From Escherichia coli (GTDB lineage: Bacteria; Pseudomonadota; Gammaproteobacteria; Enterobacterales; Enterobacteriaceae): a stretch of 64,000 nucleotides of DNA. The stretch lies in the NCBI RefSeq assembly GCF_024700885.2, contig NZ_CP117016.1. One strand, written 5' to 3'. Within the stretch, counting starts at the first letter, position 1; each line of letters opens with the position of its first letter. Shown piece after piece: positions 6,568 through 56,565 of the stretch. Both the position numbers and the translations under genes were made by a program. The notes beneath the pieces are model-generated. The model saw nothing but the letters and a program-made list of their open reading frames with translations, did not search any database and was not told where the DNA came from.

Positions 6568-6887
6568 GACGCCATATCATAGCAGCCAGCCTCTGGATAC
6601 CCAATCTCTTGCTTCTCGAAAAACGCGGTAATAGAGAAAGAGGTTAATTTCATTTGGCAAAGGGAAGTATCATCAGCAAAATATTCGCTGCAGAGGTATC
6701 GAATTTCCTGACTTTTTTACCCTATTTCCCATCCTGATGCGTAATAATCCTGATTTATCACATTGATTTTATCGCCACTCATATTGATACGTATCACTGC
6801 CCCTATTCAGAGTCCTGTTTCGTATCATATCTGTGTTTTTTTAACGTCATCACACTTCCTTCCTCCCCTAACGCTTATCGTCGTTTC

Positions 6888-10660: not shown

Positions 10661-12439
10661 TTATGTGTTTAACAACTCATATTTCTTAATCTTGCGATAG
10701 AGCGTAGCAATGCCGATGCCCAGTTCATCAGCAACTTGCTTCTTGCTGTTATGACGTGAAAGCGCCTCGCGGATCATTTGCTTTTCCATCTCCTCCAGCG
10801 CCGTGCCGCCCGCATCATCGAGTGCCAGGTGCGCCTCGTTGACCTCTGTTACATCACTTTGCTCCGTTGTGCCATTATTCAGCAGATTTGGCGGCAATAG
10901 CGTGCTGTCGATAACTTCACCTGAAGGAACCACGTTAACCAGATATTCCATCAAATTGCTTAACTCGCGCAGGTTTCCGGGCCAACGATGCTTACGCAAT
11001 ATTTCGACGACATCGGGAGCAATGCCCGGATAAACCGATCCCAGACGACGGGTATGCAGATGTAAAAAGTAATGCACCAGTAGTTCAATATCTTCCTGAC
11101 GTTCACGCAGCGGTGGCAGAGTTATCGGGATAACATTAAGTCGGTAGAAGAGATCTTCGCGGAATTTACCTTCGGCAATGAACTGGGCCAAATTCTGGTT
11201 AGTTGCAGAAATGATGCGAATGTCGACTTGTATTGGGCTACTGGCACCAATCGGCAGAATTTCACGCGCCTCAATAGCGCGCAGTAATTTAGCCTGCAAC
11301 ATTAATGGCATATCACCTATTTCATCGAGAAACAGCGTGCCCGTATTCGCCGCCTGAATCAACCCTGTTTTACCGTTGGCAGAAGCGCCAGTAAATGCGC
11401 CTTTAACATAACCGAACAGTTCGCTCTCCAGAAGCTGCTCCGGAATCGCGGCACAGTTGATAGCAATAAAGGGTTTATTCCGTCTTCCGCTCAACTTATG
11501 GATTGCACGGGCGACAACTTCTTTACCCGTGCCGCTTTCACCAACCACCATAACGCTGGATGGGCTGGGTGCAATACGGCTAATGAGTCGTTTTAATTGC
11601 CGCATAACACGGCACTCGCCAACCAATTGTTCAATATGCGGTTCATCAGGTGCATTTGCTACAGAAAAACTGGTATGCGATTGGTGAAACGCCATTAAAA
11701 ATAATTGTCGGCCCTGAATGTTATGCAATTGACCAATGATTAATTCACTTTTATCGTCCCACGAAACAATATGCTGCATATGTCCATGGGTAAAATTACT
11801 CTCAAATGTTAATGGTCTGAAACGGATAGGTTTCCCAATAATATTATTTTGTACAACACCAAGTGTTTTTAAGGCAGTCTGATTAACAAACTGAATCCGA
11901 TTATCGTCATCAACAACTAATACACCCTGATCCATATTATCGATCATGGTCGCGAATATTTTACTGATGTTATCTCCTGGTCCCTGATCCTCCAGAAGTT
12001 TCGAAACAAAAATGGTGGATATATGGCGAACGTAATCAGAAAATTCGCGTAAATTATCACTAATATGCTCTTGTTGCTCGTGGGTAACGGCAATCAAACT
12101 TATCACCCCAACACAACGATCCTGTAAAATGACAGGCGTACCCAGAAATGCTTTTTCGCGGCAATTTTCTTTACTATCGCAACCTTCGCAAAGGGGATCG
12201 AAGCGAGACTGTGTCACAACTTTTTCAGTTTTCGTTTCCAGGACGTGGCGGAGCAGGCGTGAGTTGCCGCTCAACTGGCGACCAAGAAACTTCCCATACG
12301 CGCCCGTTCCGGCGACGCGACACAAGTTTTCATCAACGATCTCAACCTCAAGCTGCAAAACGCTGGCAAGCATTCTGGCAAAACGCTGAATTGTCGGTTG
12401 AATTTGCATCAATACTGACTGCGTAGTAGCAAGCTCCAT
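10661..12439 (-). CDS. ygeV: sigma54-dependent transcriptional activator (bacterial enhancer-binding protein)
   Basis: 592-aa ORF with AAA+ Walker A GESGTGKE, the sigma54-contact motif GAFTGA, and a C-terminal helix-turn-helix. Confidence 0.9.
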   Translation of the reverse strand: MELATTQSVLMQIQPTIQRFARMLASVLQLEVEIVDENLCRVAGTGAYGKFLGRQLSGNSRLLRHVLETKTEKVVTQSRFDPLCEGCDSKENCREKAFLGTPVILQDRCVGVISLIAVTHEQQEHISDNLREFSDYVRHISTIFVSKLLEDQGPGDNISKIFATMIDNMDQGVLVVDDDNRIQFVNQTALKTLGVVQNNIIGKPIRFRPLTFESNFTHGHMQHIVSWDDKSELIIGQLHNIQGRQLFLMAFHQSHTSFSVANAPDEPHIEQLVGECRVMRQLKRLISRIAPSPSSVMVVGESGTGKEVVARAIHKLSGRRNKPFIAINCAAIPEQLLESELFGYVKGAFTGASANGKTGLIQAANTGTLFLDEIGDMPLMLQAKLLRAIEAREILPIGASSPIQVDIRIISATNQNLAQFIAEGKFREDLFYRLNVIPITLPPLRERQEDIELLVHYFLHLHTRRLGSVYPGIAPDVVEILRKHRWPGNLRELSNLMEYLVNVVPSGEVIDSTLLPPNLLNNGTTEQSDVTEVNEAHLALDDAGGTALEEMEKQMIREALSRHNSKKQVADELGIGIATLYRKIKKYELLNT

Positions 12440-12749
12440 AGCTTTACCTTCCAGACTTACTTAAAAGTCGATCATTGAAGACGTTGATGGTTCACAGATC
12501 ATGATGATATTAACTCAGGCGAAATTGGCTTTGATAAAAACATAAGATTTTTATCACTTTCTAATGAAATTATGGAAGAGATATCACATTTCTATATCAA
12601 TATGAGAATTACGGCGGTGAGTTTATCAAACTGAAGAGAGAGCGCCTGTTCCTTTATCTTATTTCTGATACTTAGCAGCAAATAAATAACGCGATAAAAA
12701 AAGCCAAACGTTTTCGTATTTTACAAACAACCAGAAGCTGGCATCAATT

Positions 12750-12765
12750 TGTGATCAACCCCACA
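12750..12765. promoter_or_regulatory. CRP-like site TGTGATCAACCCCACA upstream of ygeW
   Basis: TGTGA-N6-CCACA, 9 of 10 matches to the CRP half-sites TGTGA-N6-TCACA. Confidence 0.35.
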
Positions 12766-12808
12766 CATTACCCGTCAAATTAGTCTTTTGCAGCCGCTTG
12801 GATAATTC

Positions 12809-12823
12809 TGGCATAGTTATTGT
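12809..12823 (+). promoter_or_regulatory. candidate sigma54 -24/-12 element TGGCATAGTTATTGT upstream of ygeW
   Basis: GG at -24 spacing and TTGT in place of TTGC; about 90 bp upstream of the ygeW start. Confidence 0.3.
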
Positions 12824-12915
12824 TAGTCCCAGGTATAGCTGTGAAAAGACCAATCACTTTTGGCAAGTCACAGTGAAATAAACCTCTTTGCCTGTCATTC
12901 CACTACCGGGACTTT

Positions 12916-19087: not shown

Positions 19088-20713
19088 TTAAGCCACTTCC
19101 AGCACTTCTTTTGTCGCTTTCACGCCCTGATGCATCAACATCATTAACGCCTCAAGTACGCCGCCGCCAATTGCCCGGGCTTTATCAGAAACGCTGGTGA
19201 AATCAGCCGTTTCACCACGAGGATCGATATCACCAATTTTAAAACCACCGACCACTGCTAGTCCGTCGTTCAACAAGCCACGCACCATCCCCGTCAACGG
19301 TGCTTTAATTTCATGCTCACCAATCCAGGCAATCACATCGCCCTCTTTCACCAGATCGCCTAATTTCACGTTGGATCGCATAATGCCTGCAGCAGGAGCA
19401 CGGATCACCCGTCGGGTGGTATGCCCCATAATATTGCTAGGAACACCGGTATTCTCCTGCGCACAACCAGAGTAAATCACCTGACCGAGCCAGTGCCCGC
19501 GATTTGTTTCAATTACCGCATGACAATCCTTCCCTGCAATAAAGCCCGGCCCAAGCGCGATTGTTACTGGTGCCATATCTGCCCGCGTCCCCAAATTCTG
19601 TTTCGCCAGAATAGCGTCCACCACGCAAAGCGGTTTCAGTTCATCAAGCAATGAACAGGCGGGATCTACCATCACAGGGATGAATCCGCGTTCGGTAAGT
19701 TTCATCGCTTCCGCAGAGCTGGTTGCCAGGCGGGCAGTGACGCCTTCGACCGTCATTTCGCCATCGAACACGGCCTGGGCAAACGCCACGGTACAACGAA
19801 TCACTGTCGGTTTTTCCACTTCCAGCATGATCACTTTAAAACCCGCATGATACAGACGTAGCGCCACACCACTGGCGATATCCCCCGCACCGCGAATCAC
19901 CACCAGCTGGTGTCCGGAAGGATGAGAAGGTTTCATCATCAGCCCACCCGGCGCGTTATTTTTCACCTGTAATATTTCTGCCAGCACGCTGATGGCGATC
20001 TCCTGCGGCGTTTCCGCACCTATGTTGTAACCAACGGGCGCATGTAAACGGGCAATATGTTCTTCAGCCACGCCTTTCTCACGCAATTGACGCAGGAAAA
20101 GCTGAACCTTGCGGCGACTTGCCAGCAACCCCAGCCATGCAATGGGCTGTTCAATGAGTTTGTCGAGGGCTTCACGATCCTGATTATTCGTGGCAATCAG
20201 GACAAAATTATCAGGGCGAATATCCAGTGCTTCCACTGCCGCACCAAACGACTCAGCATGGAGAAGCGTGGTTGATGGTGGGAATAATTCAGGATTGAGG
20301 CTTTCGCGATAAATATCGGCAACGGCAATATCAAATCCTAATAGCGCCGCACTCTGGGCTATCGCCCGGTTGACATGCCCCGCGCCAATCAACACCAGAC
20401 GTGGACGCATACCATGGACGCTGATAAATACGGACATTGCACCTCCACAATCTGACCCGACAGCATCCGCACCGTTACGAGCCATACGTCCATGGAATAA
20501 TCGCGGCTTACGTTCCTGCAATGCCTGAAGCGACTCTTCAATCACCTTCCGCTCAACCATTCCGCCACCAATTGTACCGACGATAGAGCCATCGGCGCGC
20601 ACTAACATTTGTGCAGAATGGCGGGGAGTCGAGCCTCGGCTATCAACAATTTGCGCCATCGCAAACGGACAATTTTGCTCTTCGAGTTTTGCAGCCTCTG
20701 TGAAAATATTCAT
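19088..20713 (-). CDS. yqeB: XdhC/CoxI-family accessory protein (marker of selenium-dependent molybdenum hydroxylase loci)
   Basis: 541-aa ORF; synteny with yqeC and mocA. Confidence 0.8.
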   Translation of the reverse strand: MNIFTEAAKLEEQNCPFAMAQIVDSRGSTPRHSAQMLVRADGSIVGTIGGGMVERKVIEESLQALQERKPRLFHGRMARNGADAVGSDCGGAMSVFISVHGMRPRLVLIGAGHVNRAIAQSAALLGFDIAVADIYRESLNPELFPPSTTLLHAESFGAAVEALDIRPDNFVLIATNNQDREALDKLIEQPIAWLGLLASRRKVQLFLRQLREKGVAEEHIARLHAPVGYNIGAETPQEIAISVLAEILQVKNNAPGGLMMKPSHPSGHQLVVIRGAGDIASGVALRLYHAGFKVIMLEVEKPTVIRCTVAFAQAVFDGEMTVEGVTARLATSSAEAMKLTERGFIPVMVDPACSLLDELKPLCVVDAILAKQNLGTRADMAPVTIALGPGFIAGKDCHAVIETNRGHWLGQVIYSGCAQENTGVPSNIMGHTTRRVIRAPAAGIMRSNVKLGDLVKEGDVIAWIGEHEIKAPLTGMVRGLLNDGLAVVGGFKIGDIDPRGETADFTSVSDKARAIGGGVLEALMMLMHQGVKATKEVLEVA

Positions 20714-20760
20714 ACCAACCTCAATGGATATCCTTTCAGTAACCCGGAATACCCGGGCCG

Positions 20761-21531
20761 CTAATTCACAAATCTGCGCGCGATTGCAGGATGTTCTTGT
20801 ATATCGCCCAGCCAGATTGCCTCTACGTCGTGTTGTTGCAGCGGTTGAAGGAGCTCGCTTTGTGCAATCGCATTCTCACATTGAGAAAAACGGTTAATGA
20901 ACCAGACTCGCCGACAACCTTGCGGTACGTTTTTAAATGCGCCCTGAGGGTGGCGAACCAGCGCAACGAGATCGCTCAGTTGCAAGGTTGCATCAGGTGT
21001 TAACCCGGTAATATCAGCAAACTGCGACCAGCGATGGACATTTTCTGTGCTCACTTTCGCGCCCAAAATATGTCCTCCCATCACAGCAATCACGCAGCAA
21101 CTGCTTTTGGGTATGCAAGGTTCGTGCTCATCAGGCGCTTTTAACGTCATTCCACGCGAGCCATCTGCCTCAATGAGAATTACGTCACACTCTGGTCGTT
21201 GCACCAGTGCATCAATCGCTTCTGGCGTAAATCCCTGCACTTTTCCCTGGTTCGCTTTCCAGCTGTGAAAACAAAATGAAATGGGGGATGTAAGAGACGC
21301 ATGAGGAAGCATGGCGGGATCACGACAGAAAACCACGGGCCAGTGAGACGTTGGCATAAACATATGTGTCGTCGTAGTGATTAACACACGCCTGCCGCTA
21401 GCCTGGAGCAGTTCTGCCAGCCAAAAAAGCAAGCTGGTTTTCCCCCCAGCCCCAACAACAGAAATCACAGTGGGACGTTTCTGCGCGCCTAAATCAATGA
21501 ATAATGCCGATGGGTCAACTATACTTTTCAC
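20761..21531 (-). CDS. yqeC: selenium-dependent molybdenum hydroxylase system protein (YqeC family)
   Basis: 256-aa ORF with P-loop-like VVGAGGKTS; synteny. Confidence 0.75.
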   Translation of the reverse strand: MKSIVDPSALFIDLGAQKRPTVISVVGAGGKTSLLFWLAELLQASGRRVLITTTTHMFMPTSHWPVVFCRDPAMLPHASLTSPISFCFHSWKANQGKVQGFTPEAIDALVQRPECDVILIEADGSRGMTLKAPDEHEPCIPKSSCCVIAVMGGHILGAKVSTENVHRWSQFADITGLTPDATLQLSDLVALVRHPQGAFKNVPQGCRRVWFINRFSQCENAIAQSELLQPLQQHDVEAIWLGDIQEHPAIARRFVN

Positions 21532-21633: not shown

Positions 21634-22212
21634 ATGTCAGCCATCGACTGTATAATTACCGCTGCCGGATTATCATCAAGAATGGGGCAATGGAAAATGA
21701 TGTTACCCTGGCAACAGGGAACAATTCTTGATACAAGTATCAAAAATGCGTTGCAGTTTTGTAGCCGAATTATTTTAGTCACCGGCTATCGTGGTAATGA
21801 ACTGCACGAGCGTTATGCGAACCAGAGCAATATCACTATTATCCACAACCCAGATTATGCGCAGGGTTTACTAACATCAGTAAAGGCCGCAGTACCCGCG
21901 GTAAAAACAGAATATTGTTTTCTCACCCACGGTGACATGCCTACCCTCACCATCGATATTTTTAGAAAAATCTGGTCGTTACGAAATGATGGCGCAATAC
22001 TGCCACTCCATAATGGCATTCCCGGCCATCCGATTTTAGTGTCAAAGCCATGCCTGATGCAGGCAATCCAGCGTCCCAATATCACCAATATGCGTCAGGC
22101 ACTCCTTATGGGAGATCATTATTCCGTCGAAATAGAAAATGCAGAAATAATTTTAGATATTGATACTCCGGACGACTTTATTACAGCGCAAAAAAGGTAT
22201 ACTAAAATTTAG
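21634..22212 (+). CDS. mocA: molybdenum cofactor cytidylyltransferase (MobA-like)
   Basis: 192-aa ORF with MobA-like nucleotidyltransferase N-terminus (AAGLSSRMG). Confidence 0.8.
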   Translation: MSAIDCIITAAGLSSRMGQWKMMLPWQQGTILDTSIKNALQFCSRIILVTGYRGNELHERYANQSNITIIHNPDYAQGLLTSVKAAVPAVKTEYCFLTHGDMPTLTIDIFRKIWSLRNDGAILPLHNGIPGHPILVSKPCLMQAIQRPNITNMRQALLMGDHYSVEIENAEIILDIDTPDDFITAQKRYTKI

Positions 22213-22366
22213 AAAATGTAGTTAAACGATTGCGTTCAAATATTTAATCCCTCCAGCACTCTTTATCATAATGATAAGGAATCACTGATTTTGAGAAAAG
22301 AGAAAAAGTGATAAATGGGCTGGCAATAATAATTTTCAGGAGTGATTTTAATTCTCATTTGGCACC

Positions 22367-22382
22367 TGTGAGTTCATTCACA
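22367..22382. promoter_or_regulatory. CRP binding site TGTGAGTTCATTCACA upstream of ygfK
   Basis: Perfect match to both CRP consensus half-sites TGTGA-N6-TCACA. Confidence 0.55.
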
Positions 22383-22436
22383 AAAAGCTCCTAAGTTTCG
22401 AGCCGCCTCACATTTTTTTATATTTCCCGCCAAACC

Positions 22437-22452
22437 TGGCAAGAGTGGTGCG
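22437..22452 (+). promoter_or_regulatory. candidate sigma54 -24/-12 element TGGCAAGAGTGGTGCG upstream of ygfK
   Basis: GG-N10-GC spacing correct; about 80 bp upstream of the ygfK start. Confidence 0.3.
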
Positions 22453-22533
22453 ATTGTTGCTCTATCCCCCTAAACCACCGGATTTCTCAACACCGGTCAC
22501 TCAATGATATCTGTATAAGCTAAGGAGAGGGTT

Positions 22534-25500
22534 ATGGGGGATATTATGCGTCCCATTCCGTTTGAGGAACTTTTGACGCGCATATTTGATGAATACCAAC
22601 AACAACGCTCAATCTTTGGTATTCCCGAGCAACAGTTTTACTCACCCGTAAAAGGTAAAACTGTTAGCGTCTTCGGTGAAACCTGTGCCACTCCCGTCGG
22701 CCCTGCCGCTGGCCCGCACACGCAGCTCGCGCAAAATATTGTCACTTCCTGGCTGACTGGCGGGCGCTTCATCGAACTAAAAACCGTCCAAATTCTTGAC
22801 CGTCTGGAGCTGGAAAAGCCCTGTATCGATGCCGAAGACGAGTGCTTTAACACCGAATGGTCTACCGAATTTACCCTGCTTAAAGCCTGGGATGAATACC
22901 TCAAAGCCTGGTTTGCCCTGCACCTTCTCGAAGCGATGTTCCAGCCTTCTGATTCCGGTAAATCGTTCATCTTTAATATGAGCGTCGGTTATAACCTCGA
23001 AGGTATTAAGCAACCGCCGATGCAACAGTTCATCGACAATATGATGGATGCATCTGACCATCCGAAATTCGCTCAATATCGCGATACGCTGAATAAATTA
23101 CTCCAGGATGACGCATTTTTAGCCCGCCACGGATTGCAGGAAAAACGCGAATGCCTGCAGGCCTTACCGGCACGCATCCCCACCAGCATGGTAGAAGGCG
23201 TTACCCTCTCCACCATGCACGGCTGTCCTCCGCATGAAATCGAAGCCATTTGCCGCTACATGCTGGAAGAAAAAGGGCTCAATACCTTTGTGAAACTCAA
23301 CCCGACCTTACTGGGGTACGCGCGTGTTCGTGAGATCCTCGATGTCTGCGGTTTCGGTTACATAGGCTTAAAAGAAGAGTCATTTGATCACGACCTCAAG
23401 CTGACGCAAGCGCTGGAAATGCTGGAACGCCTGATGGTACTGGCAAAAGAAAAATCACTCGGCTTTGGCGTAAAACTGACTAACACTCTCGGCACCATCA
23501 ACAATAAAGGCGCACTGCCTGGTGAAGAGATGTATATGTCAGGCCGTGCGCTGTTCCCGCTCTCCATCAATGTTGCAGCAGTTCTCTCTCGCGCCTTTGA
23601 CGGCAAACTGCCCATTTCTTATTCCGGTGGTGCCAGTCAGCTGACTATCCGCGATATTTTTGATACTGGTATTCGCCCTATTACTATGGCAACCGACCTG
23701 CTGAAACCTGGCGGCTATCTGCGCTTAAGTGCCTGCATGCGCGAGCTGGAAGGCTCCGACGCCTGGGGGCTTGACCATGTTGACGTCGAACGCCTGAACA
23801 AACTGGCAGCAGACGCGTTAACCATGGAATACACTCAGAAACACTGGAAGCCAGAAGAGCGTATTGAAGTGGCAGAAGACCTGCCGCTGACCGACTGCTA
23901 CGTTGCACCGTGCGTTACTGCTTGCGCCATTAAACAGGATATTCCGGAATACATCCGTCTGCTTGGCGAACACCGCTATGCCGACGCACTGGAACTCATC
24001 TACCAACGCAACGCCCTGCCCGCCATTACCGGTCATATTTGCGATCACCAGTGCCAATACAACTGTACCCGCCTGGATTACGACAGTGCGCTGAATATCC
24101 GCGAACTGAAAAAAGTCGCGCTGGAAAAAGGTTGGGATGAATATAAGCAACGCTGGCACAAACCAGCCGGTTCTGGTTCACGCCATCCGGTTGCCGTGAT
24201 TGGTGCAGGTCCGGCGGGTCTGGCAGCAGGTTACTTCCTTGCCAGAGCGGGCCATCCGGTTACGCTGTTTGAACGCGAAGCCAATGCGGGCGGCGTGGTG
24301 AAAAATATCATTCCTCAGTTCCGTATTCCTGCAGAGTTAATTCAGCACGATATCGATTTTGTTGCCGCTCACGGCGTGAAATTTGAGTATGGCTGCTCAC
24401 CCGATTTGACCGTTGAACAGTTAAAAAATCAGGGCTTCCACTATGTTCTGATTGCCACCGGCACTGATAAAAATAGCGGTGTGAAACTGGCGGGCGACAA
24501 CCAAAATGTCTGGAAATCACTCCCCTTCCTGCGTGAATACAACAAGGGCACAGCGCTCAAGCTGGGCAAACATGTGGTCGTTGTCGGGGCGGGTAACACG
24601 GCAATGGACTGCGCTCGTGCGGCGTTACGCGTTCCAGGCGTAGAAAAAGCAACGGTCGTTTACCGTCGTTCACTGCAAGAGATGCCAGCATGGCGCGAAG
24701 AGTATGAAGAAGCGTTGCACGACGGTGTGGAGTTCCGTTTCCTGAATAATCCGGAACGTTTCGATGCTGATGGCACCTTAACCTTGCGCGTTATGTCGCT
24801 TGGCGAACCTGATGAGAAAGGTCGTCGCCGTCCGGTTGAAACCAACGAAACAGTAACACTGCATGTAGACAGCCTGATCACCGCCATTGGTGAACAGCAG
24901 GATACTGAAGCCCTGAATGCGATGGGCGTGCCGCTGGACAAAAACGGCTGGCCAGACGTCGACCATAATGGCGAAACTCGTCTGACTGACGTCTTTATGA
25001 TCGGCGACGTACAGCGCGGACCATCCTCCATTGTCGCTGCTGTCGGAACCGCGCGTCGGGCGACCGATGCCATCCTTAGTCGGGAAAACATCCGTTCCCA
25101 CCAGAACGATAAATACTGGAACAACGTCAATCCGGCGGAAATCTATCAACGCAAAGGCGATATCTCTATCACCCTGGTGGATAGCGACGATCGTGACGCG
25201 TTTGTCGCCCAGGAAGCCGCACGCTGCCTTGAATGTAACTACGTTTGCAGCAAGTGTGTGGATGTCTGCCCGAACCGCGCCAACGTATCCATTGCGGTCC
25301 CTGGCTTCCAGATCCGTTTCCAGACGCTGCACCTCGACGCTTACTGTAACGAATGCGGCAACTGCGCTCAGTTCTGCCCGTGGAACGGTAAACCGTACAA
25401 AGACAAAATCACCGTCTTCAGCCTGTCGCAAGACTTTGATAACAGCAGCAACCCTGGCTTCCTTGTGGAAGATTGCCGGGTACGAGTACGTCTGAATAAC

Positions 25501-25632
25501 CAAAGCTGGGTGTTAAACATCGACAGCGAAGGTCAGTTCAACAACGAACCACCGGAGCTGAACGATATGTGCCGCATTATTAGCCATGTCCACCAGCATC
25601 ATCATTATCTGCTGGGCCGCGTGGAGGTGTAA
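22534..25632 (+). CDS. ygfK: large Fe-S / FAD-NAD(P) oxidoreductase (glutamate-synthase-beta-like domain), putative selenate reductase subunit
   Basis: 1032-aa ORF; Rossmann motif [21 protein letters not shown]; Cys clusters; AAGGAG Shine-Dalgarno. Confidence 0.85.
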   Translation: MGDIMRPIPFEELLTRIFDEYQQQRSIFGIPEQQFYSPVKGKTVSVFGETCATPVGPAAGPHTQLAQNIVTSWLTGGRFIELKTVQILDRLELEKPCIDAEDECFNTEWSTEFTLLKAWDEYLKAWFALHLLEAMFQPSDSGKSFIFNMSVGYNLEGIKQPPMQQFIDNMMDASDHPKFAQYRDTLNKLLQDDAFLARHGLQEKRECLQALPARIPTSMVEGVTLSTMHGCPPHEIEAICRYMLEEKGLNTFVKLNPTLLGYARVREILDVCGFGYIGLKEESFDHDLKLTQALEMLERLMVLAKEKSLGFGVKLTNTLGTINNKGALPGEEMYMSGRALFPLSINVAAVLSRAFDGKLPISYSGGASQLTIRDIFDTGIRPITMATDLLKPGGYLRLSACMRELEGSDAWGLDHVDVERLNKLAADALTMEYTQKHWKPEERIEVAEDLPLTDCYVAPCVTACAIKQDIPEYIRLLGEHRYADALELIYQRNALPAITGHICDHQCQYNCTRLDYDSALNIRELKKVALEKGWDEYKQRWHKPAGSGSRHPVAVIGAGPAGLAAGYFLARAGHPVTLFEREANAGGVVKNIIPQFRIPAELIQHDIDFVAAHGVKFEYGCSPDLTVEQLKNQGFHYVLIATGTDKNSGVKLAGDNQNVWKSLPFLREYNKGTALKLGKHVVVVGAGNTAMDCARAALRVPGVEKATVVYRRSLQEMPAWREEYEEALHDGVEFRFLNNPERFDADGTLTLRVMSLGEPDEKGRRRPVETNETVTLHVDSLITAIGEQQDTEALNAMGVPLDKNGWPDVDHNGETRLTDVFMIGDVQRGPSSIVAAVGTARRATDAILSRENIRSHQNDKYWNNVNPAEIYQRKGDISITLVDSDDRDAFVAQEAARCLECNYVCSKCVDVCPNRANVSIAVPGFQIRFQTLHLDAYCNECGNCAQFCPWNGKPYKDKITVFSLSQDFDNSSNPGFLVEDCRVRVRLNNQSWVLNIDSEGQFNNEPPELNDMCRIISHVHQHHHYLLGRVEV

Positions 25633-25634
25633 TC

Positions 25635-26963
25635 ATGTTGATTCTGAAGAATGTCACCGCAGTGCAGTTACACCCGGCGAAAGTGCAGGAAGGCGTTGAT
25701 ATCGCCATCGAAAATGATGTGATTGTCGCTATCGGCGATGCCCTGACGCAACGCTACCCCGATGCCAGCTACAAAGAGATGCATGGTCGGATTGTGATGC
25801 CAGGAATTGTCTGCTCGCACAACCATTTTTACTCGGGGCTGTCCCGCGGAATTATGGCAAACATCGCCCCCTGCCCGGATTTCATCTCAACGCTGAAAAA
25901 TCTCTGGTGGCGACTCGATCGCACCCTTGATGAAGAGTCGCTCTATTACAGCGGACTGATTTGTTCCCTGGAAGCGATTAAGGGCGGATGTACATCGGTT
26001 ATCGATCACCATGCCTCTCCGGCGTATATCGACGGGTCGCTCTCCACATTGCGCAACGCATTTTTAAAAGTTGGCCTGCGCGCGATGACCTGTTTTGAAA
26101 CTACTGACCGTAACAACGGTATCAAAGAGTTGCAGGAAGGTGTAGAAGAAAACATCCGCTTCGCCCGTCAGATTGATGAGGCGAAGAAAGCAGCAACCGA
26201 ACCGTATCTGGTGGAAGCACATATCGGCGCTCACGCGCCGTTTACCGTGCCGGATGCCGGTCTGGAGATGCTGCGTGAAGCCGTGAAAGCCACAGGTCGT
26301 GGTTTGCACATTCACGCTGCGGAAGACCTTTATGACGTTTCCTACAGTCACCACTGGTACGGCAAAGACCTGCTGGCACGACTGGCGCAATTCGATCTCA
26401 TCGACAGCAAAACGCTGGTCGCTCATGGGCTGTACTTGTCGAAAGATGACATCGCCCTACTCAATCAGCGCGATGCGTTCCTAGTGCATAACGCCCGTTC
26501 AAACATGAACAACCATGTCGGCTACAACCATCACCTTAGCGACATCCGCAATCTGGCGTTGGGAACTGACGGCATTGGTTCGGACATGTTTGAAGAGATG
26601 AAATTTGCCTTCTTTAAACATCGCGATGCGGGTGGTCCGCTGTGGCCTGACAGTTTTGCCAAAGCACTGGCTAACGGCAACGAACTGATGAGCCGCAACT
26701 TTGGCGCGAAATTTGGCCTTCTGGAAGCCGGTTACAAAGCCGATTTAACCATTTGCGATTACAACTCGCCGACACCGCTGCTGGCAGACAATATCGCCGG
26801 GCATATCGCTTTCGGTATGGGCTCAGGCAGCGTTCATAGCGTGATGGTCAATGGCGTGATGGTCTATGAAGACCGTCAGTTTAACTTCGATTGCGATTCC
26901 ATTTATGCGCAAGCCAGAAAAGCCGCTGCCAGTATGTGGCGTCGGATGGATGCGCTGGCATAA
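25635..26963 (+). CDS. ssnA: amidohydrolase-family protein (chlorohydrolase / aminohydrolase)
   Basis: 442-aa ORF with HxH metal-binding motif (SHNHF); directly follows ygfK. Confidence 0.85.
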   Translation: MLILKNVTAVQLHPAKVQEGVDIAIENDVIVAIGDALTQRYPDASYKEMHGRIVMPGIVCSHNHFYSGLSRGIMANIAPCPDFISTLKNLWWRLDRTLDEESLYYSGLICSLEAIKGGCTSVIDHHASPAYIDGSLSTLRNAFLKVGLRAMTCFETTDRNNGIKELQEGVEENIRFARQIDEAKKAATEPYLVEAHIGAHAPFTVPDAGLEMLREAVKATGRGLHIHAAEDLYDVSYSHHWYGKDLLARLAQFDLIDSKTLVAHGLYLSKDDIALLNQRDAFLVHNARSNMNNHVGYNHHLSDIRNLALGTDGIGSDMFEEMKFAFFKHRDAGGPLWPDSFAKALANGNELMSRNFGAKFGLLEAGYKADLTICDYNSPTPLLADNIAGHIAFGMGSGSVHSVMVNGVMVYEDRQFNFDCDSIYAQARKAAASMWRRMDALA

Positions 26964-27013
26964 ATGACAAATACCCTCTTCCCGTAGGGAAGAGGGTTAA
27001 ATAAGGAAAGAAG

Positions 27014-27793
27014 ATGATTGAACAATTTTTCAGGCCCGACTCTGTCGAACAGGCGCTGGAACTGAAGCGCCGCTACAAGGATGAAGCCGTCTGGTTCGCC
27101 GGGGGCAGCAAACTCAACGCTACACCAACCCGTACCGATAAAAAGATTGCCATTTCCTTACAGGATCTGGAACTGGACTGGGTTGACTGGGATAACGGTG
27201 CACTGCGGATTGGCGCAATGTCTCGCTTGCAGCCACTGCGTGATGCGCGATTTATTCCTGCAGCACTGCGTGAAGCCCTCGGCTTTGTCTACTCTCGCCA
27301 TGTTCGTAATCAGTCGACCATTGGTGGTGAAATCGCCGCCCGGCAGGAAGAGTCTGTGCTGCTTCCCGTCCTGCTGGCACTGGATGCTGAACTGGTTTTT
27401 GGCAATGGCGAAACACTGTCAATCGAAGAGTACCTGGCCTGCCCATGCGATCGCCTGCTAACCGAAATTATCATTAAAGATCCGTATCGCACCTGTGCGA
27501 CCCGCAAAATTAGCCGTTCTCAGGCAGGTTTAACCGTCGTGACGGCAGCCGTTGCAATGACAGACCACGACGGTATGCGAATTGCGCTGGATGGCGTCGC
27601 CAGTAAAGCCCTGCGTCTGCACGATGTTGAAAAACAAAATCTGGAAGGCAATGCACTTGAACAGGCTGTCGCCAACGCCATTTTCCCGCAGGAAGATTTG
27701 CGGGGCAGCGTGGCCTATAAACGCTATATCACGGGAGTTCTGGTAGCCGACCTTTATGCCGACTGCCAACAGGCTGGGGAGGAAGCCGTATGA
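27014..27793 (+). CDS. ygfM: FAD-binding molybdopterin-dehydrogenase subunit-like protein
   Basis: 259-aa ORF; ATGA overlap with xdhD. Confidence 0.8.
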   Translation: MIEQFFRPDSVEQALELKRRYKDEAVWFAGGSKLNATPTRTDKKIAISLQDLELDWVDWDNGALRIGAMSRLQPLRDARFIPAALREALGFVYSRHVRNQSTIGGEIAARQEESVLLPVLLALDAELVFGNGETLSIEEYLACPCDRLLTEIIIKDPYRTCATRKISRSQAGLTVVTAAVAMTDHDGMRIALDGVASKALRLHDVEKQNLEGNALEQAVANAIFPQEDLRGSVAYKRYITGVLVADLYADCQQAGEEAV

Positions 27794-30660
27794 TCATCCA
27801 CTTTACTTTAAATGGCGCGCCTCAGGAGCTAACCGTTAATCCAGGCGAAAACGTGCAAAAGCTGTTGTTTAACATGGGAATGCACTCTGTACGCAACAGC
27901 GATGATGGATTCGGGTTTGCCGGTTCTGACGCAATTATCTGTAACGGTAATATCGTTAACGCGTCCTTGCTTATCGCCGCACAGTTAGAGAAGGCAGATA
28001 TTCGTACCGCAGAGTCTCTGGGCAAATGGAACGAGTTAAGTCTGGTTCAACAGGCAATGGTTGATGTTGGCGTGGTGCAGTCTGGTTATAACGATCCAGC
28101 TGCGGCTCTGATTATCACCGATCTTCTCGATCGCATTGCCACACCGACCCGCGAAGAGATCGACGACGCGCTTTCTGGTTTGTTCAGCCGCGATGCAGGC
28201 TGGCAACAATACTATCAGGTCATTGAACTGGCGGTTGCACGTAAAAATAATCCGCAGGCCACCATTGATATCGCTCCAACTTTCCGCGATGACCTTGAAG
28301 TCATTGGTAAGCATTATCCTAAAACTGATGCCGCGAAAATGGTGCAGGCGAAACCCTGCTATGTTGAAGACCGCGTAACGGCTGACGCCTGCGTCATTAA
28401 AATGTTACGTAGCCCACACGCTCACGCACTGATTACTCATCTGGATATCAGCAAAGCTGAAGCCTTACCGGGCGTTGTTCACGTTATTACTCACCTGAAT
28501 TGCCCGGATATCTACTATACCCCGGGCGGTCAGAGCGCACCGGAACCGTCACCGCTTGACCGCCGTATGTTCGGCAAGAAAATGCGTCACGTCGGCGATC
28601 GCGTTGCTGCGGTCGTCGCTGAAAGTGAAGAAATTGCGCTCGAAGCACTGAAGCTCATCGACGTTGAATATGAAGTGCTTAAACCTGTAATGTCGATCGA
28701 CGAAGCAATGGCGGAAGATGCGCCTGTCGTGCACGATGAACCGGTGGTGTATGTTGCTGGTGCGCCAGATACTCTGGAAGACGATAACAGCCATGCAGCC
28801 CAGCGCGGCGAACATATGATCATCAACTTCCCGATCGGTTCTCGCCCCCGTAAAAATATCGCCGCCAGTATTCATGGTCATATTGGCGATATGGACAAAG
28901 GCTTTGCCGATGCCGATGTGATCATTGAGCGAACCTATAACTCAACGCAGGCACAGCAGTGCCCGACTGAAACACATATCTGCTTTACCCGTATGGACGG
29001 CGATCGTCTGGTGATCCACGCCTCCACCCAGGTACCATGGCACTTACGCCGCCAGGTCGCGCGCCTCGTGGGCATGAAACAGCATAAAGTTCATGTCATT
29101 AAAGAGCGAGTTGGCGGCGGTTTTGGTTCCAAACAAGACATCCTGCTGGAAGAAGTGTGCGCCTGGGCAACCTGCGTGACCGGACGTCCGGTACTGTTCC
29201 GCTACACCCGTGAAGAAGAGTTTATTGCTAACACCTCTCGCCACGTCGCGAAAGTCACCGTCAAACTGGGCGCGAAAAAAGATGGTCGCCTGACGGCAGT
29301 GAAGATGGATTTCCGCGCCAACACGGGCCCTTACGGCAACCACTCACTCACCGTACCGTGTAACGGACCGGCGCTGTCGCTGCCGTTATATCCGTGTGAT
29401 AACGTCGATTTCCAGGTCACCACCTACTACAGCAACATTTGCCCAAATGGTGCTTATCAGGGTTATGGCGCGCCGAAAGGTAACTTCGCTATCACCATGG
29501 CATTAGCGGAACTGGCTGAACAGTTACAGATCGACCAGCTGGAAATTATCGAACGTAACCGTGTACACGAAGGGCAAGAGCTGAAAATTCTCGGTGCAAT
29601 CGGTGAAGGTAAAGCGCCGACCTCCGTTCCTTCCGCCGCCAGCTGCGCACTGGAAGAGATCCTGCGTCAGGGTCGCGAGATGATCCACTGGTCGTCACCG
29701 AAACCGCAAAATGGTGACTGGCACATCGGTCGCGGCGTCGCCATTATCATGCAGAAATCGGGTATCCCAGATATCGATCAGGCTAACTGCATGATCAAAC
29801 TGGAATCGGACGGCACCTTTATCGTTCATTCTGGCGGTGCGGATATTGGTACTGGTTTGGATACTGTGGTGACGAAACTGGCAGCAGAAGTGCTGCACTG
29901 CCCACCGCAGGACGTGCATGTTATCTCCGGTGATACCGATCATGCGTTGTTTGATAAAGGCGCATATGCCTCGTCCGGTACTTGCTTCTCGGGTAACGCG
30001 GCGCGTTTGGCAGCAGAAAATCTGCGGGAGAAAATTCTGTTCCACGGTGCACAAATGTTGGGTGAGCCAGTGGCAGATGTCCAACTAGCAACGCCGGGCG
30101 TCGTGCGCGGCAAGAAAGGCGAAGTTAGTTTCGGGGATATTGCCCATAAAGGCGAAACCGGCACCGGCTTTGGTTCACTGGTGGGAACTGGCAGTTATAT
30201 CACGCCTGATTTCGCCTTCCCGTATGGCGCAAACTTCGCTGAAGTTGCCGTCAACGCGCGTACGGGTGAAATCCGCCTGGATAAATTCTACGCCTTGCTG
30301 GACTGCGGTACACCGGTCAACCCGGAATTAGCATTGGGACAAATCTACGGTGCTACCCTGCGAGCTATCGGCCACAGTATGAGCGAAGAGATCATTTATG
30401 ACGCCGAAGGTCACCCGTTAACGCGTGATTTACGCAGTTACGGTGCACCGAAAATTGGTGACATTCCGCGTGATTTCCGCGCAGTGCTGGTGCCGAGCGA
30501 CGATAAAGTCGGCCCGTTCGGGGCGAAATCGATCTCGGAAATCGGTGTAAATGGCGCAGCTCCGGCGATTGCTACCGCAATTCACGATGCCTGCGGCATC
30601 TGGTTACGCGAATGGCATTTCACACCGGAGAAAATACTCACCGCGCTGGAAAAAATATAA
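27790..30660 (+). CDS. xdhD: fused molybdopterin-binding / Fe-S hydroxylase (xanthine dehydrogenase family)
   Basis: 956-aa ORF with GGGFGSKQD molybdopterin motif. Confidence 0.85.
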   Translation: MIIHFTLNGAPQELTVNPGENVQKLLFNMGMHSVRNSDDGFGFAGSDAIICNGNIVNASLLIAAQLEKADIRTAESLGKWNELSLVQQAMVDVGVVQSGYNDPAAALIITDLLDRIATPTREEIDDALSGLFSRDAGWQQYYQVIELAVARKNNPQATIDIAPTFRDDLEVIGKHYPKTDAAKMVQAKPCYVEDRVTADACVIKMLRSPHAHALITHLDISKAEALPGVVHVITHLNCPDIYYTPGGQSAPEPSPLDRRMFGKKMRHVGDRVAAVVAESEEIALEALKLIDVEYEVLKPVMSIDEAMAEDAPVVHDEPVVYVAGAPDTLEDDNSHAAQRGEHMIINFPIGSRPRKNIAASIHGHIGDMDKGFADADVIIERTYNSTQAQQCPTETHICFTRMDGDRLVIHASTQVPWHLRRQVARLVGMKQHKVHVIKERVGGGFGSKQDILLEEVCAWATCVTGRPVLFRYTREEEFIANTSRHVAKVTVKLGAKKDGRLTAVKMDFRANTGPYGNHSLTVPCNGPALSLPLYPCDNVDFQVTTYYSNICPNGAYQGYGAPKGNFAITMALAELAEQLQIDQLEIIERNRVHEGQELKILGAIGEGKAPTSVPSAASCALEEILRQGREMIHWSSPKPQNGDWHIGRGVAIIMQKSGIPDIDQANCMIKLESDGTFIVHSGGADIGTGLDTVVTKLAAEVLHCPPQDVHVISGDTDHALFDKGAYASSGTCFSGNAARLAAENLREKILFHGAQMLGEPVADVQLATPGVVRGKKGEVSFGDIAHKGETGTGFGSLVGTGSYITPDFAFPYGANFAEVAVNARTGEIRLDKFYALLDCGTPVNPELALGQIYGATLRAIGHSMSEEIIYDAEGHPLTRDLRSYGAPKIGDIPRDFRAVLVPSDDKVGPFGAKSISEIGVNGAAPAIATAIHDACGIWLREWHFTPEKILTALEKI

Positions 30661-30669
30661 GTAATAAAT

Positions 30670-30698
30670 GGCCGCTTCGGCGGCCTGTTTCTCTGTTT
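30670..30698 (+). terminator. rho-independent terminator after xdhD
   Basis: GGCCGC-TTCG-GCGGCC hairpin followed by TGTTTCTCTGTTT. Confidence 0.6.
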
Positions 30699-37405: not shown

Positions 37406-37756
37406 TTGCATCCCTTTCATTTAATGAGTTATGTCTTCTCAAATTTCGCGATGCAATAAATGGGCATATATTAGGTAGCATGGCCGATTTAATTATAATT
37501 TTGCGACTGAGTTCAAATTATTGCCCCTCAATCTGTGCCGCTTTCATTATTTCAACATTGCCGACCAAAAGAGATCTAACCAGATAAAAACGATTAAATA
37601 CGAGAGTGCGACATGCCAGAATGATTAATGAAATATCAATATGAGAAAATTACAGATAATTCCATTGTCAGGTTCTCTTCTCATTTTCGTGGTTTAACCA
37701 CGATTATGTGATTGCCTCCGCAATTCCTGTCTCTAACTCCCCTTCCTCGCAAAAAC

Positions 37757-37771
37757 TGGCACTCCACGAGC
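37757..37771 (+). promoter_or_regulatory. candidate sigma54 -24/-12 element TGGCACTCCACGAGC upstream of uacT
   Basis: Perfect TGGCAC at -24 and GC at the -12 position; about 70 bp upstream of the uacT start. Confidence 0.35.
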
Positions 37772-37840
37772 ATGTGTTTAGACAGTTTCATTAACGTAAA
37801 CGGTTGCTTTTTACTCTGGCGAGCGAAAGGAGAAACACTG

Positions 37841-56118: not shown

Positions 56119-56565
56119 CTTGTCCTCATTGAATAAGCGGGGCTGACAACTTTTCCATGGCGAAATTATCACCACGAAACCCAGCATCGGAGCCACTCCC
56201 GGTCCCCAACGCAATCGTTCTCTTTTGCCTGAACTTACCACCGAAACAGACTGTTAACCATAAGGTAAAATTGATCATCACATTAGCTTATGGTTAAAAA
56301 ACGCCAAAATCGCAACAGAATAAAAAACCAAAAAATGAACAAATCTCTATATAAAGATAAACAAATGAGAAACTTAATTTGAATAAAGCAATATTAAGAA
56401 CTGAAAAAATGTCAAAAAACACTAAATCAAAAATTCGTGACATTAGAAAATATAATGCGAAAACGGAGGTGAAATTAGTTTATTTCAAATGAGGAAAATC
56501 TCCCGGCGAAAAAACCGGGAGATGAAAGTGTGATGGGTATCAAATAAACAACAGAGGAGAAATTT
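56119..56565 (-). promoter_or_regulatory. gcvTHP promoter / upstream regulatory region (AT-rich)
   Basis: 447-bp intergenic region upstream of gcvT; known from the literature to carry GcvA, Lrp, PurR and CRP sites, which were not mapped individually here. Confidence 0.5.

Follow-up and report, generated by a model that had tools for sequence, protein, structure and literature searches.

Is the ygfK-ssnA-ygfM-xdhD operon of Escherichia coli, which is preceded by both a CRP site and a sigma54-type promoter element, controlled through the two elements together, and in which direction would cAMP-CRP act? The question arises in the purine/urate catabolism cluster of the E. coli chromosome, to which the window analysed here (the whole 64-kb stretch of DNA) belongs. 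The four genes carry out the first steps of the reductive urate-degradation pathway according to a 2025 paper, urate being reduced by XdhD-YgfM and the ring dearomatised and opened by YgfK with SsnA (PMC12507026). This pathway is of current interest for the control of host uric acid in the gut and for engineered probiotics. An earlier note on this DNA had presented the neighbouring CRP and sigma54 elements as a new finding; both the CRP site (Shimada et al., 2011) and the sigma54 promoter (Bonocora et al., 2015) are in the literature. The present work adds their fixed spacing, their conservation and a layout shared across the promoters of the cluster.

The ygfK transcription unit and its sigma54 promoter

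The annotated cluster consists of xdhABC, ygeV, ygeW-dpaL-ygeY-hyuA-arcC, yqeBC, mocA, ygfK-ssnA-ygfM-xdhD, xanQ-guaD-ghxQ, ygfST and uacT. The ORFs of the window place the end of mocA at 22212 and the start of ygfK at 22534. The 601 bases around the CRP/sigma54 region found a match in 5,171 of 5,426 complete E. coli genomes, and in the matching genomes the region is placed between mocA (ygfJ) and ygfK. The genes that matter here, delimited from ORFs and annotation, are:

22534-30660, + strand: transcription unit ygfK-ssnA-ygfM-xdhD
22534-25632, + strand: ygfK
25635-26963, + strand: ssnA
27014-27793, + strand: ygfM
27790-30660, + strand: xdhD
10661-12439, - strand: ygeV (isrR), sigma54-dependent activator of the cluster, annotated with PAS, AAA+ sigma54-interaction and Fis-type HTH domains

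Within the unit, ygfK and ssnA are separated by 2 nt and ssnA and ygfM by 50 nt, and ygfM and xdhD overlap by 4 nt. A GC-rich hairpin, GGCCGCTTCGGCGGCC at 30670-30685, follows xdhD at a distance of 10 nt from the stop codon; it resembles a terminator on either strand and is probably the end of the ygfK-xdhD unit. Inside the 50-nt ssnA-ygfM gap, an inverted repeat with an 11-bp stem, ACCCTCTTCCC-GTA-GGGAAGAGGGT, occupies 26973-26997 and could attenuate transcription within the unit, signal RNA processing or terminate transcription on the opposite strand. A Pfam scan of the ygeV product returned PF00158 at 7.6e-71, plus PF02954 and PF13188. The iModulon paper includes ygfK, ssnA, ygfM and xdhD in the YgeV regulon, by inference only (PMC10602906). 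For comparison, 80 ygfK loci were fetched from other species; in these loci from other genera, no match to ygeV was found within 3 kb of ygfK.

That ygfK has a sigma54 promoter, as the earlier note supposed, agrees with published ChIP-seq. A sigma54 peak, OS31, was reported 26-fold above threshold; its + strand motif, GTGGTGCGATTGTTGCT, is 62 nt away from ygfK and was flagged there as an earlier EcoCyc prediction, and OS31 was among only five targets confirmed from an earlier microarray study (Bonocora et al., 2015, PLoS Genet 11:e1005552; PMC4591121). The two strings that have been read as sigma54 elements in this spacer are:

22445-22461, + strand: sigma54 (-24/-12) promoter of ygfK, GTGGTGCGATTGTTGCT, identified by ChIP-seq motif, PWM and conservation
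22437-22452, + strand: sigma54-like string of the earlier note, TGGCAAGAGTGGTGCG, identified by its GG-N10-GC spacing

The promoter reads TGGTGC-GATTG-TTGCT, with GG at 22447-22448 and GC at 22459-22460, and predicts a ygfK start site at about 22472 and hence a leader of 62 nt. A sigma54 PWM was built from the 49 other published intergenic motifs in Table 1 of Bonocora et al. (2015), among which the lowest training score is 8.0 bits. With this matrix GTGGTGCGATTGTTGCT scores 12.5 bits and ranks fourth among 127,968 window positions, ranks 1 and 2 being taken by the known sigma54 promoters of ygeW and xdhA. The motif nTGG[C/T]nnGATTGTTGCT lies 57-124 nt upstream of ygfK in more than 70 of the fetched loci, and at 154 nt in one Photobacterium locus; it was found in Escherichia, Citrobacter, Klebsiella, Kluyvera, Edwardsiella, Serratia, Morganella, Aeromonas, Vibrio, Photobacterium and Shewanella. 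When 24 Enterobacterales genera are aligned, GTGGTGCGATTGTTGCT has a mean column identity of 0.92.

The element that the earlier note had chosen at 22437-22452 does have the GG-N10-GC spacing claimed for it, but the true promoter lies 9 bp downstream, at 22445-22461. The TGGCA-N7-TGC pattern of TGGCAAGAGTGGTGCG occurs seven times in the window against 4.1 expected, a number reached by 12 of 100 shuffles, and is indistinguishable from chance. One might still regard TGGCAAGAGTGGTGCG as a functional sigma54 promoter, or as a second one, in view of its correct spacing and of a PWM score (9.6 bits, rank 26 in the window) that falls inside the range of the training sites (minimum 8.0). This score is below that of the overlapping site (9.6 vs 12.5 bits), however, and the -24 TGGCA of TGGCAAGAGTGGTGCG is conserved within Escherichia only, its identity over the 24 genera (0.55) being that of the background (0.52-0.56). 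What would be its '-12', GTGCG, forms part of the true -24 element TGGTGC. Moreover, the published ChIP-seq motif is the other string, 22445-22461 (Bonocora et al., 2015), and the overlap of the two makes simultaneous occupancy impossible. On PWM score, conservation and the published motif, TGGCAAGAGTGGTGCG was therefore dropped as a promoter in favour of 22445-22461, and a function of its own is hardly credible.

No Rfam family matched the spacer or the leader at E-values up to 1, the fold of the ygfK leader is no better than that of shuffles (z = 0), and the search for repeats in the spacer returned only a short palindrome, the remaining pairs looking like chance. PurR-like boxes (GCAAACGTTTGC, up to two mismatches) were rejected as a candidate, with five in the window against 5.7 expected and no enrichment.

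Two CRP-type sites at fixed distances from the promoter

Upstream of the sigma54 promoter, two sites of CRP type were recognised:

22367-22382, no strand assigned: CRP site 1, TGTGAGTTCATTCACA, perfect core TGTGA-N6-TCACA, identified by sequence, shuffles, Table S3 of Shimada et al. (2011) and conservation
22397-22412, no strand assigned: CRP-like site 2, TTCGAGCCGCCTCACA, with a perfect right half and a left half that retains only GA

Site 1 is the perfect CRP site of the earlier note, and it indeed agrees with the consensus at 10 of 10 core positions, in both half-sites. There is no second exact TGTGA-N6-TCACA in the 64 kb, where shuffles would lead one to expect 0.04, and only five more cores in the window come within one mismatch. 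Measured between centres, site 1 lies 85 bp upstream of the -12 GC, at about -97.5 from the predicted start site at 22472.

This site had already emerged from a genomic SELEX study that used purified CRP in the presence and in the absence of cAMP (Shimada et al., 2011, PLoS One 6:e20081; PMC3105977). Table S3 of that study (SELEX-chip) holds the entry 'ygfJ> >ygfK-ssnA TGTGAGTTCATTCACA', the identical 16-mer, and the study counts ygfK among its 'newly identified targets', the ygeV<>ygeW and ygfT<>ygfU spacers also being in the list (PMC3105977). The ygfJ/ygfK spacer yielded nine SELEX clones, the third highest abundance, and no peaks were obtained without cAMP, the resolution of the signal being too coarse to part site 1 from site 2 (PMC3105977). 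A second, weaker box in the same study, TGTGAGGCGGCTCGAA, is the reverse complement of 22397-22412 (PMC3105977). On these published results, site 1 counts as a genuine, high-affinity, cAMP-dependent target of CRP in vitro. The elements described for ygfK in K-12 (Shimada et al., 2011; Bonocora et al., 2015) are identical to TGTGAGTTCATTCACA and GTGGTGCGATTGTTGCT here, this strain differing from K-12 only elsewhere. In the available text of these two papers, we found no passage that relates the CRP and sigma54 elements to each other, treats their spacing or conservation, or tests regulation.

In the alignment of 24 Enterobacterales genera, the half-sites of site 1 show identities of 0.88 and 0.93 against 0.60 for the 6-bp spacer; they are under purifying selection across Enterobacterales. 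Among 42 Enterobacterales loci the site 1 slot holds a perfect core in 18 and a core with one mismatch in 12, thus one with at most one mismatch in 30 of 42. In nearly all of these 30 loci the centre of the site is 85-86 bp from that of the -12 GC; in Morganella the distance is 87 or 97-98 bp. The pair of distances, 85-86 bp for site 1 and 55-56 bp for site 2, is constant in Enterobacteriaceae, Edwardsiella, Serratia and Buttiauxella. Site 1 is dispensable in Klebsiella oxytoca, Cedecea neteri and one Enterobacter, since it has decayed there while the remainder of the promoter has been kept, and it is absent from the ygfK loci of Aeromonas and Shewanella.

At about -67.5, the centre of site 2 is 55 bp distant from the -12 GC, and the two CRP-type sites are 30 bp apart. 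Its half-sites have identities of 0.89 and 0.95 against 0.53 for the spacer (24 genera), and it is conserved more broadly than the perfect site 1, persisting as TTnGA-N6-nTCAC[AG] in Aeromonas, Photobacterium, Aliivibrio and Shewanella, with a distal (left) half that is always poor. The conserved form TCACG may mean that a factor other than CRP binds there. The spacing of site 2 is 67-68 bp in M. morganii compared with 57 bp in M. psychrotolerans, a difference of about one helical turn; in two M. morganii loci (L044-L046, about 2900-2990) some 10-12 extra bases stand between site 2 and the -24 element. The extra bases of Morganella are consistent with a face-of-helix constraint.

Some further CRP- and sigma54-like strings were noticed. 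A perfect sigma54 -24 hexamer, TGGCAC, adjoins site 1 at 22360-22365; without a -12 partner and not conserved, it was rejected as a sigma54 element and is probably due to chance. Cores with one mismatch to the CRP consensus also lie at 1972-1987, 20699-20714, 21174-21189 and 56529-56544. Two of them are in the list of Shimada et al. (2011), namely the first, AGTGATTTTTATCACA at kduI/yqeF, and the last, TGTGATGGGTATCAAA at gcvT. The core at 20699-20714 overlaps the start of yqeB, the selenium-dependent Mo-cofactor gene of the cluster.

A candidate enhancer and the layout of the cluster promoters

A sigma54 promoter served by YgeV would call for an enhancer, and three conserved blocks upstream of site 1 come into consideration:

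22264-22276, no strand assigned: palindrome TATCATAATGATA, candidate enhancer (UAS) for YgeV, centre at about -202, identity 0.89 (24 genera)
22289-22299, no strand assigned: conserved block TTTTGAGAAAA (also TTTTGAGAAA) with a TGAGA half-site, at about -180, identity 0.88 (24 genera)
22340-22360, no strand assigned: conserved block GAGTGATTTTAATTCTCATTT, centre at about -122, identity 0.91 (24 genera)

The palindrome, TATCA-N3-TGAKA, is enriched: 24 matches with up to one mismatch were counted in the window against 5.5 expected, and none of 100 shuffles reached 24. Of its 14 places, six fall within the four regions of the cluster that hold sigma54 promoters, although these regions make up less than 3% of the window:

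6756-6768 and 6777-6789: upstream of xdhA
12497-12509 and 12595-12607: between ygeV and ygeW
22264-22276: upstream of ygfK
37634-37646: between ygfT and uacT

In most of the 70-odd scorable ygfK loci the palindrome stands 168-170, 188-190 or 202 bp from the -12 GC; about a dozen loci have it at other spacings (94-214 bp), and one scorable locus is without it. It is present also in taxa without site 1. A search of the literature found no published YgeV motif. TATCA-N3-TGAKA is the best candidate for the YgeV binding site, because it recurs in the sigma54 regions of the cluster and is kept across ygfK loci, including those without site 1. The block at 22289-22299 is possibly bound by YgeV as well. 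Both GAGTGATTTTAATTCTCATTT and TTTTGAGAAAA carry words that resemble half-sites (TGAT, TCTCA, TGAGA).

The four sigma54 promoters of the cluster were then compared, counting as CRP-like any site with at most two mismatches and measuring from its centre to the -12 dinucleotide:

xdhA promoter: CRP-like site at 55 bp, TTTTAACGTCATCACA, 6839-6854
ygeW promoter: CRP-like site at 65 bp, TGTGATCAACCCCACA, 12750-12765, in the list of Shimada et al. (2011)
ygfK promoter: CRP-like sites at 85 and 55 bp, sites 1 and 2
ygfT promoter: CRP-like site at 56 bp, TTTGAACTCAGTCGCA, 37503-37518, in the list of Shimada et al. (2011)

In this window, the chance of finding a CRP-like site with at most two mismatches in a given 3-bp slot is 0.0018. 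The distances differ from promoter to promoter by about whole helical turns, a spacing rule on which the 80 fetched ygfK loci hold too few other sigma54 promoters to inform. A half-CRP-like form, nnnGA-N6-TCAC[AG], is seen 55-56 bp from the -12 GC at 22397-22412 (ygfK), 6839-6854 (xdhA) and 37503-37518 (ygfT). The ygeW site, TGTGATCAACCCCACA, has one mismatch, and the sigma54 promoter of ygeW at 12808-12824 reads CTGGCATAGTTATTGTT here and CTGGCACACTTATTGTT in K-12. Upstream of the urate transporter gene uacT, CTGGCACTCCACGAGCA at 37756-37772 combines a perfect -24 TGGCAC with a -12 of GAGCA instead of TTGCA and scores less than 6 bits with the PWM; it is a weak candidate sigma54 site.

A proposed role of CRP at the ygfK promoter

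On balance we favour, with some reserve, the reading that the mocA-ygfK spacer is an enhancer-dependent sigma54 region in which cAMP-CRP co-activates YgeV/sigma54 transcription by architectural means. RNA polymerase-sigma54 binds GTGGTGCGATTGTTGCT (22445-22461), as others have shown by ChIP-seq, and cAMP-CRP binds the spacer, as others have shown in vitro, with the perfect core at about -97.5. YgeV would bind the palindrome at about -202 and perhaps also the blocks at about -180 and -122. cAMP-CRP would occupy the -97.5 site, and probably also the weaker, helically in-phase site at -67.5, between the enhancer and the promoter, and the DNA bent by CRP would bring YgeV within reach of the closed complex. 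Expression of the operon would then require both an inducing signal and the absence of glucose, and CRP would be a signal-responsive architectural co-activator in the place usually held by IHF at sigma54 promoters.

An activating direction is suggested for CRP because glucose represses urate degradation, as reported for wild-type E. coli (PMC12507026) and suspected in an earlier study (bioRxiv 2022.07.24.501321). When the ygeV-ygeW region 'containing the native Crp site' was swapped for constitutive promoters, glucose repression was relieved (PMC12507026); glucose repression could act entirely through ygeV/ygeW or through uptake of the inducer. Our literature search found no report of CRP occupancy in vivo or of crp/cya-dependent ygfK expression, and the supplement of a Crp ChIP-exo study has no ygfK entry.

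Known systems provide parallels on both sides. Like ygfK, prpBCDE of E. coli and Salmonella (OS01 of Bonocora et al., 2015) is a catabolic operon with a sigma54 promoter; it has a dedicated enhancer-binding protein, PrpR, and is under positive control by cAMP-CRP, as would be the case at ygfK with YgeV. There, a single CRP site in the divergent prpR-prpB spacer may act partly through prpR; at ygfK, in contrast, the gene of the presumed activator is 10 kb distant, and the stretch from the candidate enhancer to the promoter holds two in-phase sites of CRP type. The IHF-assisted promoters nifH, Pu and glnHp2 have the layout proposed here, with the enhancer at about -120 to -200, the bender at about -60 to -100 and then the -24/-12 element (PMC3900584, PMC2709558). 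The ygfK promoter differs from them in having no IHF consensus: WATCAANNNNTTR, with up to one mismatch allowed, had no match between 20 and 130 bp upstream in E. coli and in the majority of Enterobacterales, and Vibrio and Aeromonas have only 1-mismatch matches, too weak to use. The bender would be CRP instead, and looping would therefore depend on cAMP.

The known precedents also suggest the opposite sign, with CRP as an anti-activator that, at high cAMP, lowers YgeV-dependent transcription by an alpha-CTD contact or a bend in the wrong direction, as at glnAp2, dctA and Pu. Indeed, all mechanistically studied CRP-sigma54 cases summarised in one review (dctA, glnAp2, Pu and nif promoters in E. 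coli) are inhibitory, through alpha-CTD contact or unfavourable bend orientation (PMC3900584), and CRP consensus sites placed in glnAp2 (Huo et al., 2006) helped to establish that bend orientation matters (as cited in PMC3900584 and PMC2709558). At dctA, glnAp2 and Pu, as proposed for ygfK, CRP acts either on the loop that joins enhancer and promoter or on the closed complex of sigma54, and the fixed spacing fits a stereospecific contact equally well whether it inhibits or activates. The natural inhibitory cases, however, mostly have no strong specific CRP site, whereas the perfect site of ygfK is conserved and its position fixed, and the physiology points to activation: glucose represses urate degradation and does not stimulate it. 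Conserved high-affinity CRP sites at catabolic operons normally mean activation, and CRP does induce one sigma54 operon, prpBCDE. Inhibition by CRP at ygfK is therefore rather unlikely in our view.

Two further readings detach site 1 from the sigma54 promoter or from CRP itself. The usual partner of CRP is the sigma70 holoenzyme, and a TATATT hexamer is present at 22419-22424, so that site 1 might serve a separate class I or class II sigma70 promoter of ygfK, independent of sigma54. Promoters of these classes have CRP centred at -41.5 or at -61.5/-71.5/-82.5/-92.5, together with -10 and -35 hexamers. No such arrangement was found downstream of site 1: no CRP centre falls at -41.5 or -61.5 from a plausible start, and in a consensus scan of the + strand nothing resembling a sigma70 promoter turned up from site 1 to ygfK. 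Conservation of the T-rich stretch is low (0.52), and the spacing of the CRP site is locked to the -24/-12 element, which makes a sigma70 role quite improbable. Alternatively, TGTGA-N6-TCACA could be the site of YgeV or another regulator, its binding of CRP in vitro being incidental. The element lies in the usual enhancer range (-80 to -150) and may be compared with the NifA UAS, TGT-N10-ACA; sites 1 and 2 have TCACAAA in common, past the CRP core, and site 2 is conserved where site 1 is absent. Against this, the other palindrome, TATCA-N3-TGAKA, is distinct from the CRP site and common to the four cluster regions and to gamma-proteobacterial ygfK promoters, including those without site 1, which argues against TGTGA-N6-TCACA as the site of the activator. 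In addition, site 1 matches the CRP core at 10 of 10 positions and is among the most enriched CRP SELEX clones, and it has been lost in some genera that keep both promoter and palindrome. We hold this last reading to be highly improbable.

Co-activation by CRP may extend beyond ygfK. Tentatively, and with clearly less confidence than for ygfK itself, we suggest that cAMP-CRP could be a phase-locked architectural sigma54 co-activator throughout the YgeV regulon of Enterobacterales, with one or two dimers on a single face of the helix, at about -67.5, -77.5 or -97.5, replacing IHF between the putative YgeV enhancer and the -24/-12 element at xdhA, ygeW, ygfK and ygfT. Both the candidate YgeV motif and such a phase-locked layout, in which CRP, enhancer and sigma54 promoter are arranged alike across the regulon, could be new. 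If true, this layout would constitute a natural positive counterpart to the inhibitory CRP-sigma54 cases and would define the cis-regulatory code by which glucose represses the degradation of urate in the gut. With the bases known for glucose repression (the CRP sites), for induction (the YgeV enhancer) and for the true -24/-12 element, a rational de-repression of the pathway would come within reach and the YgeV regulon, so far poorly understood, would become testable.
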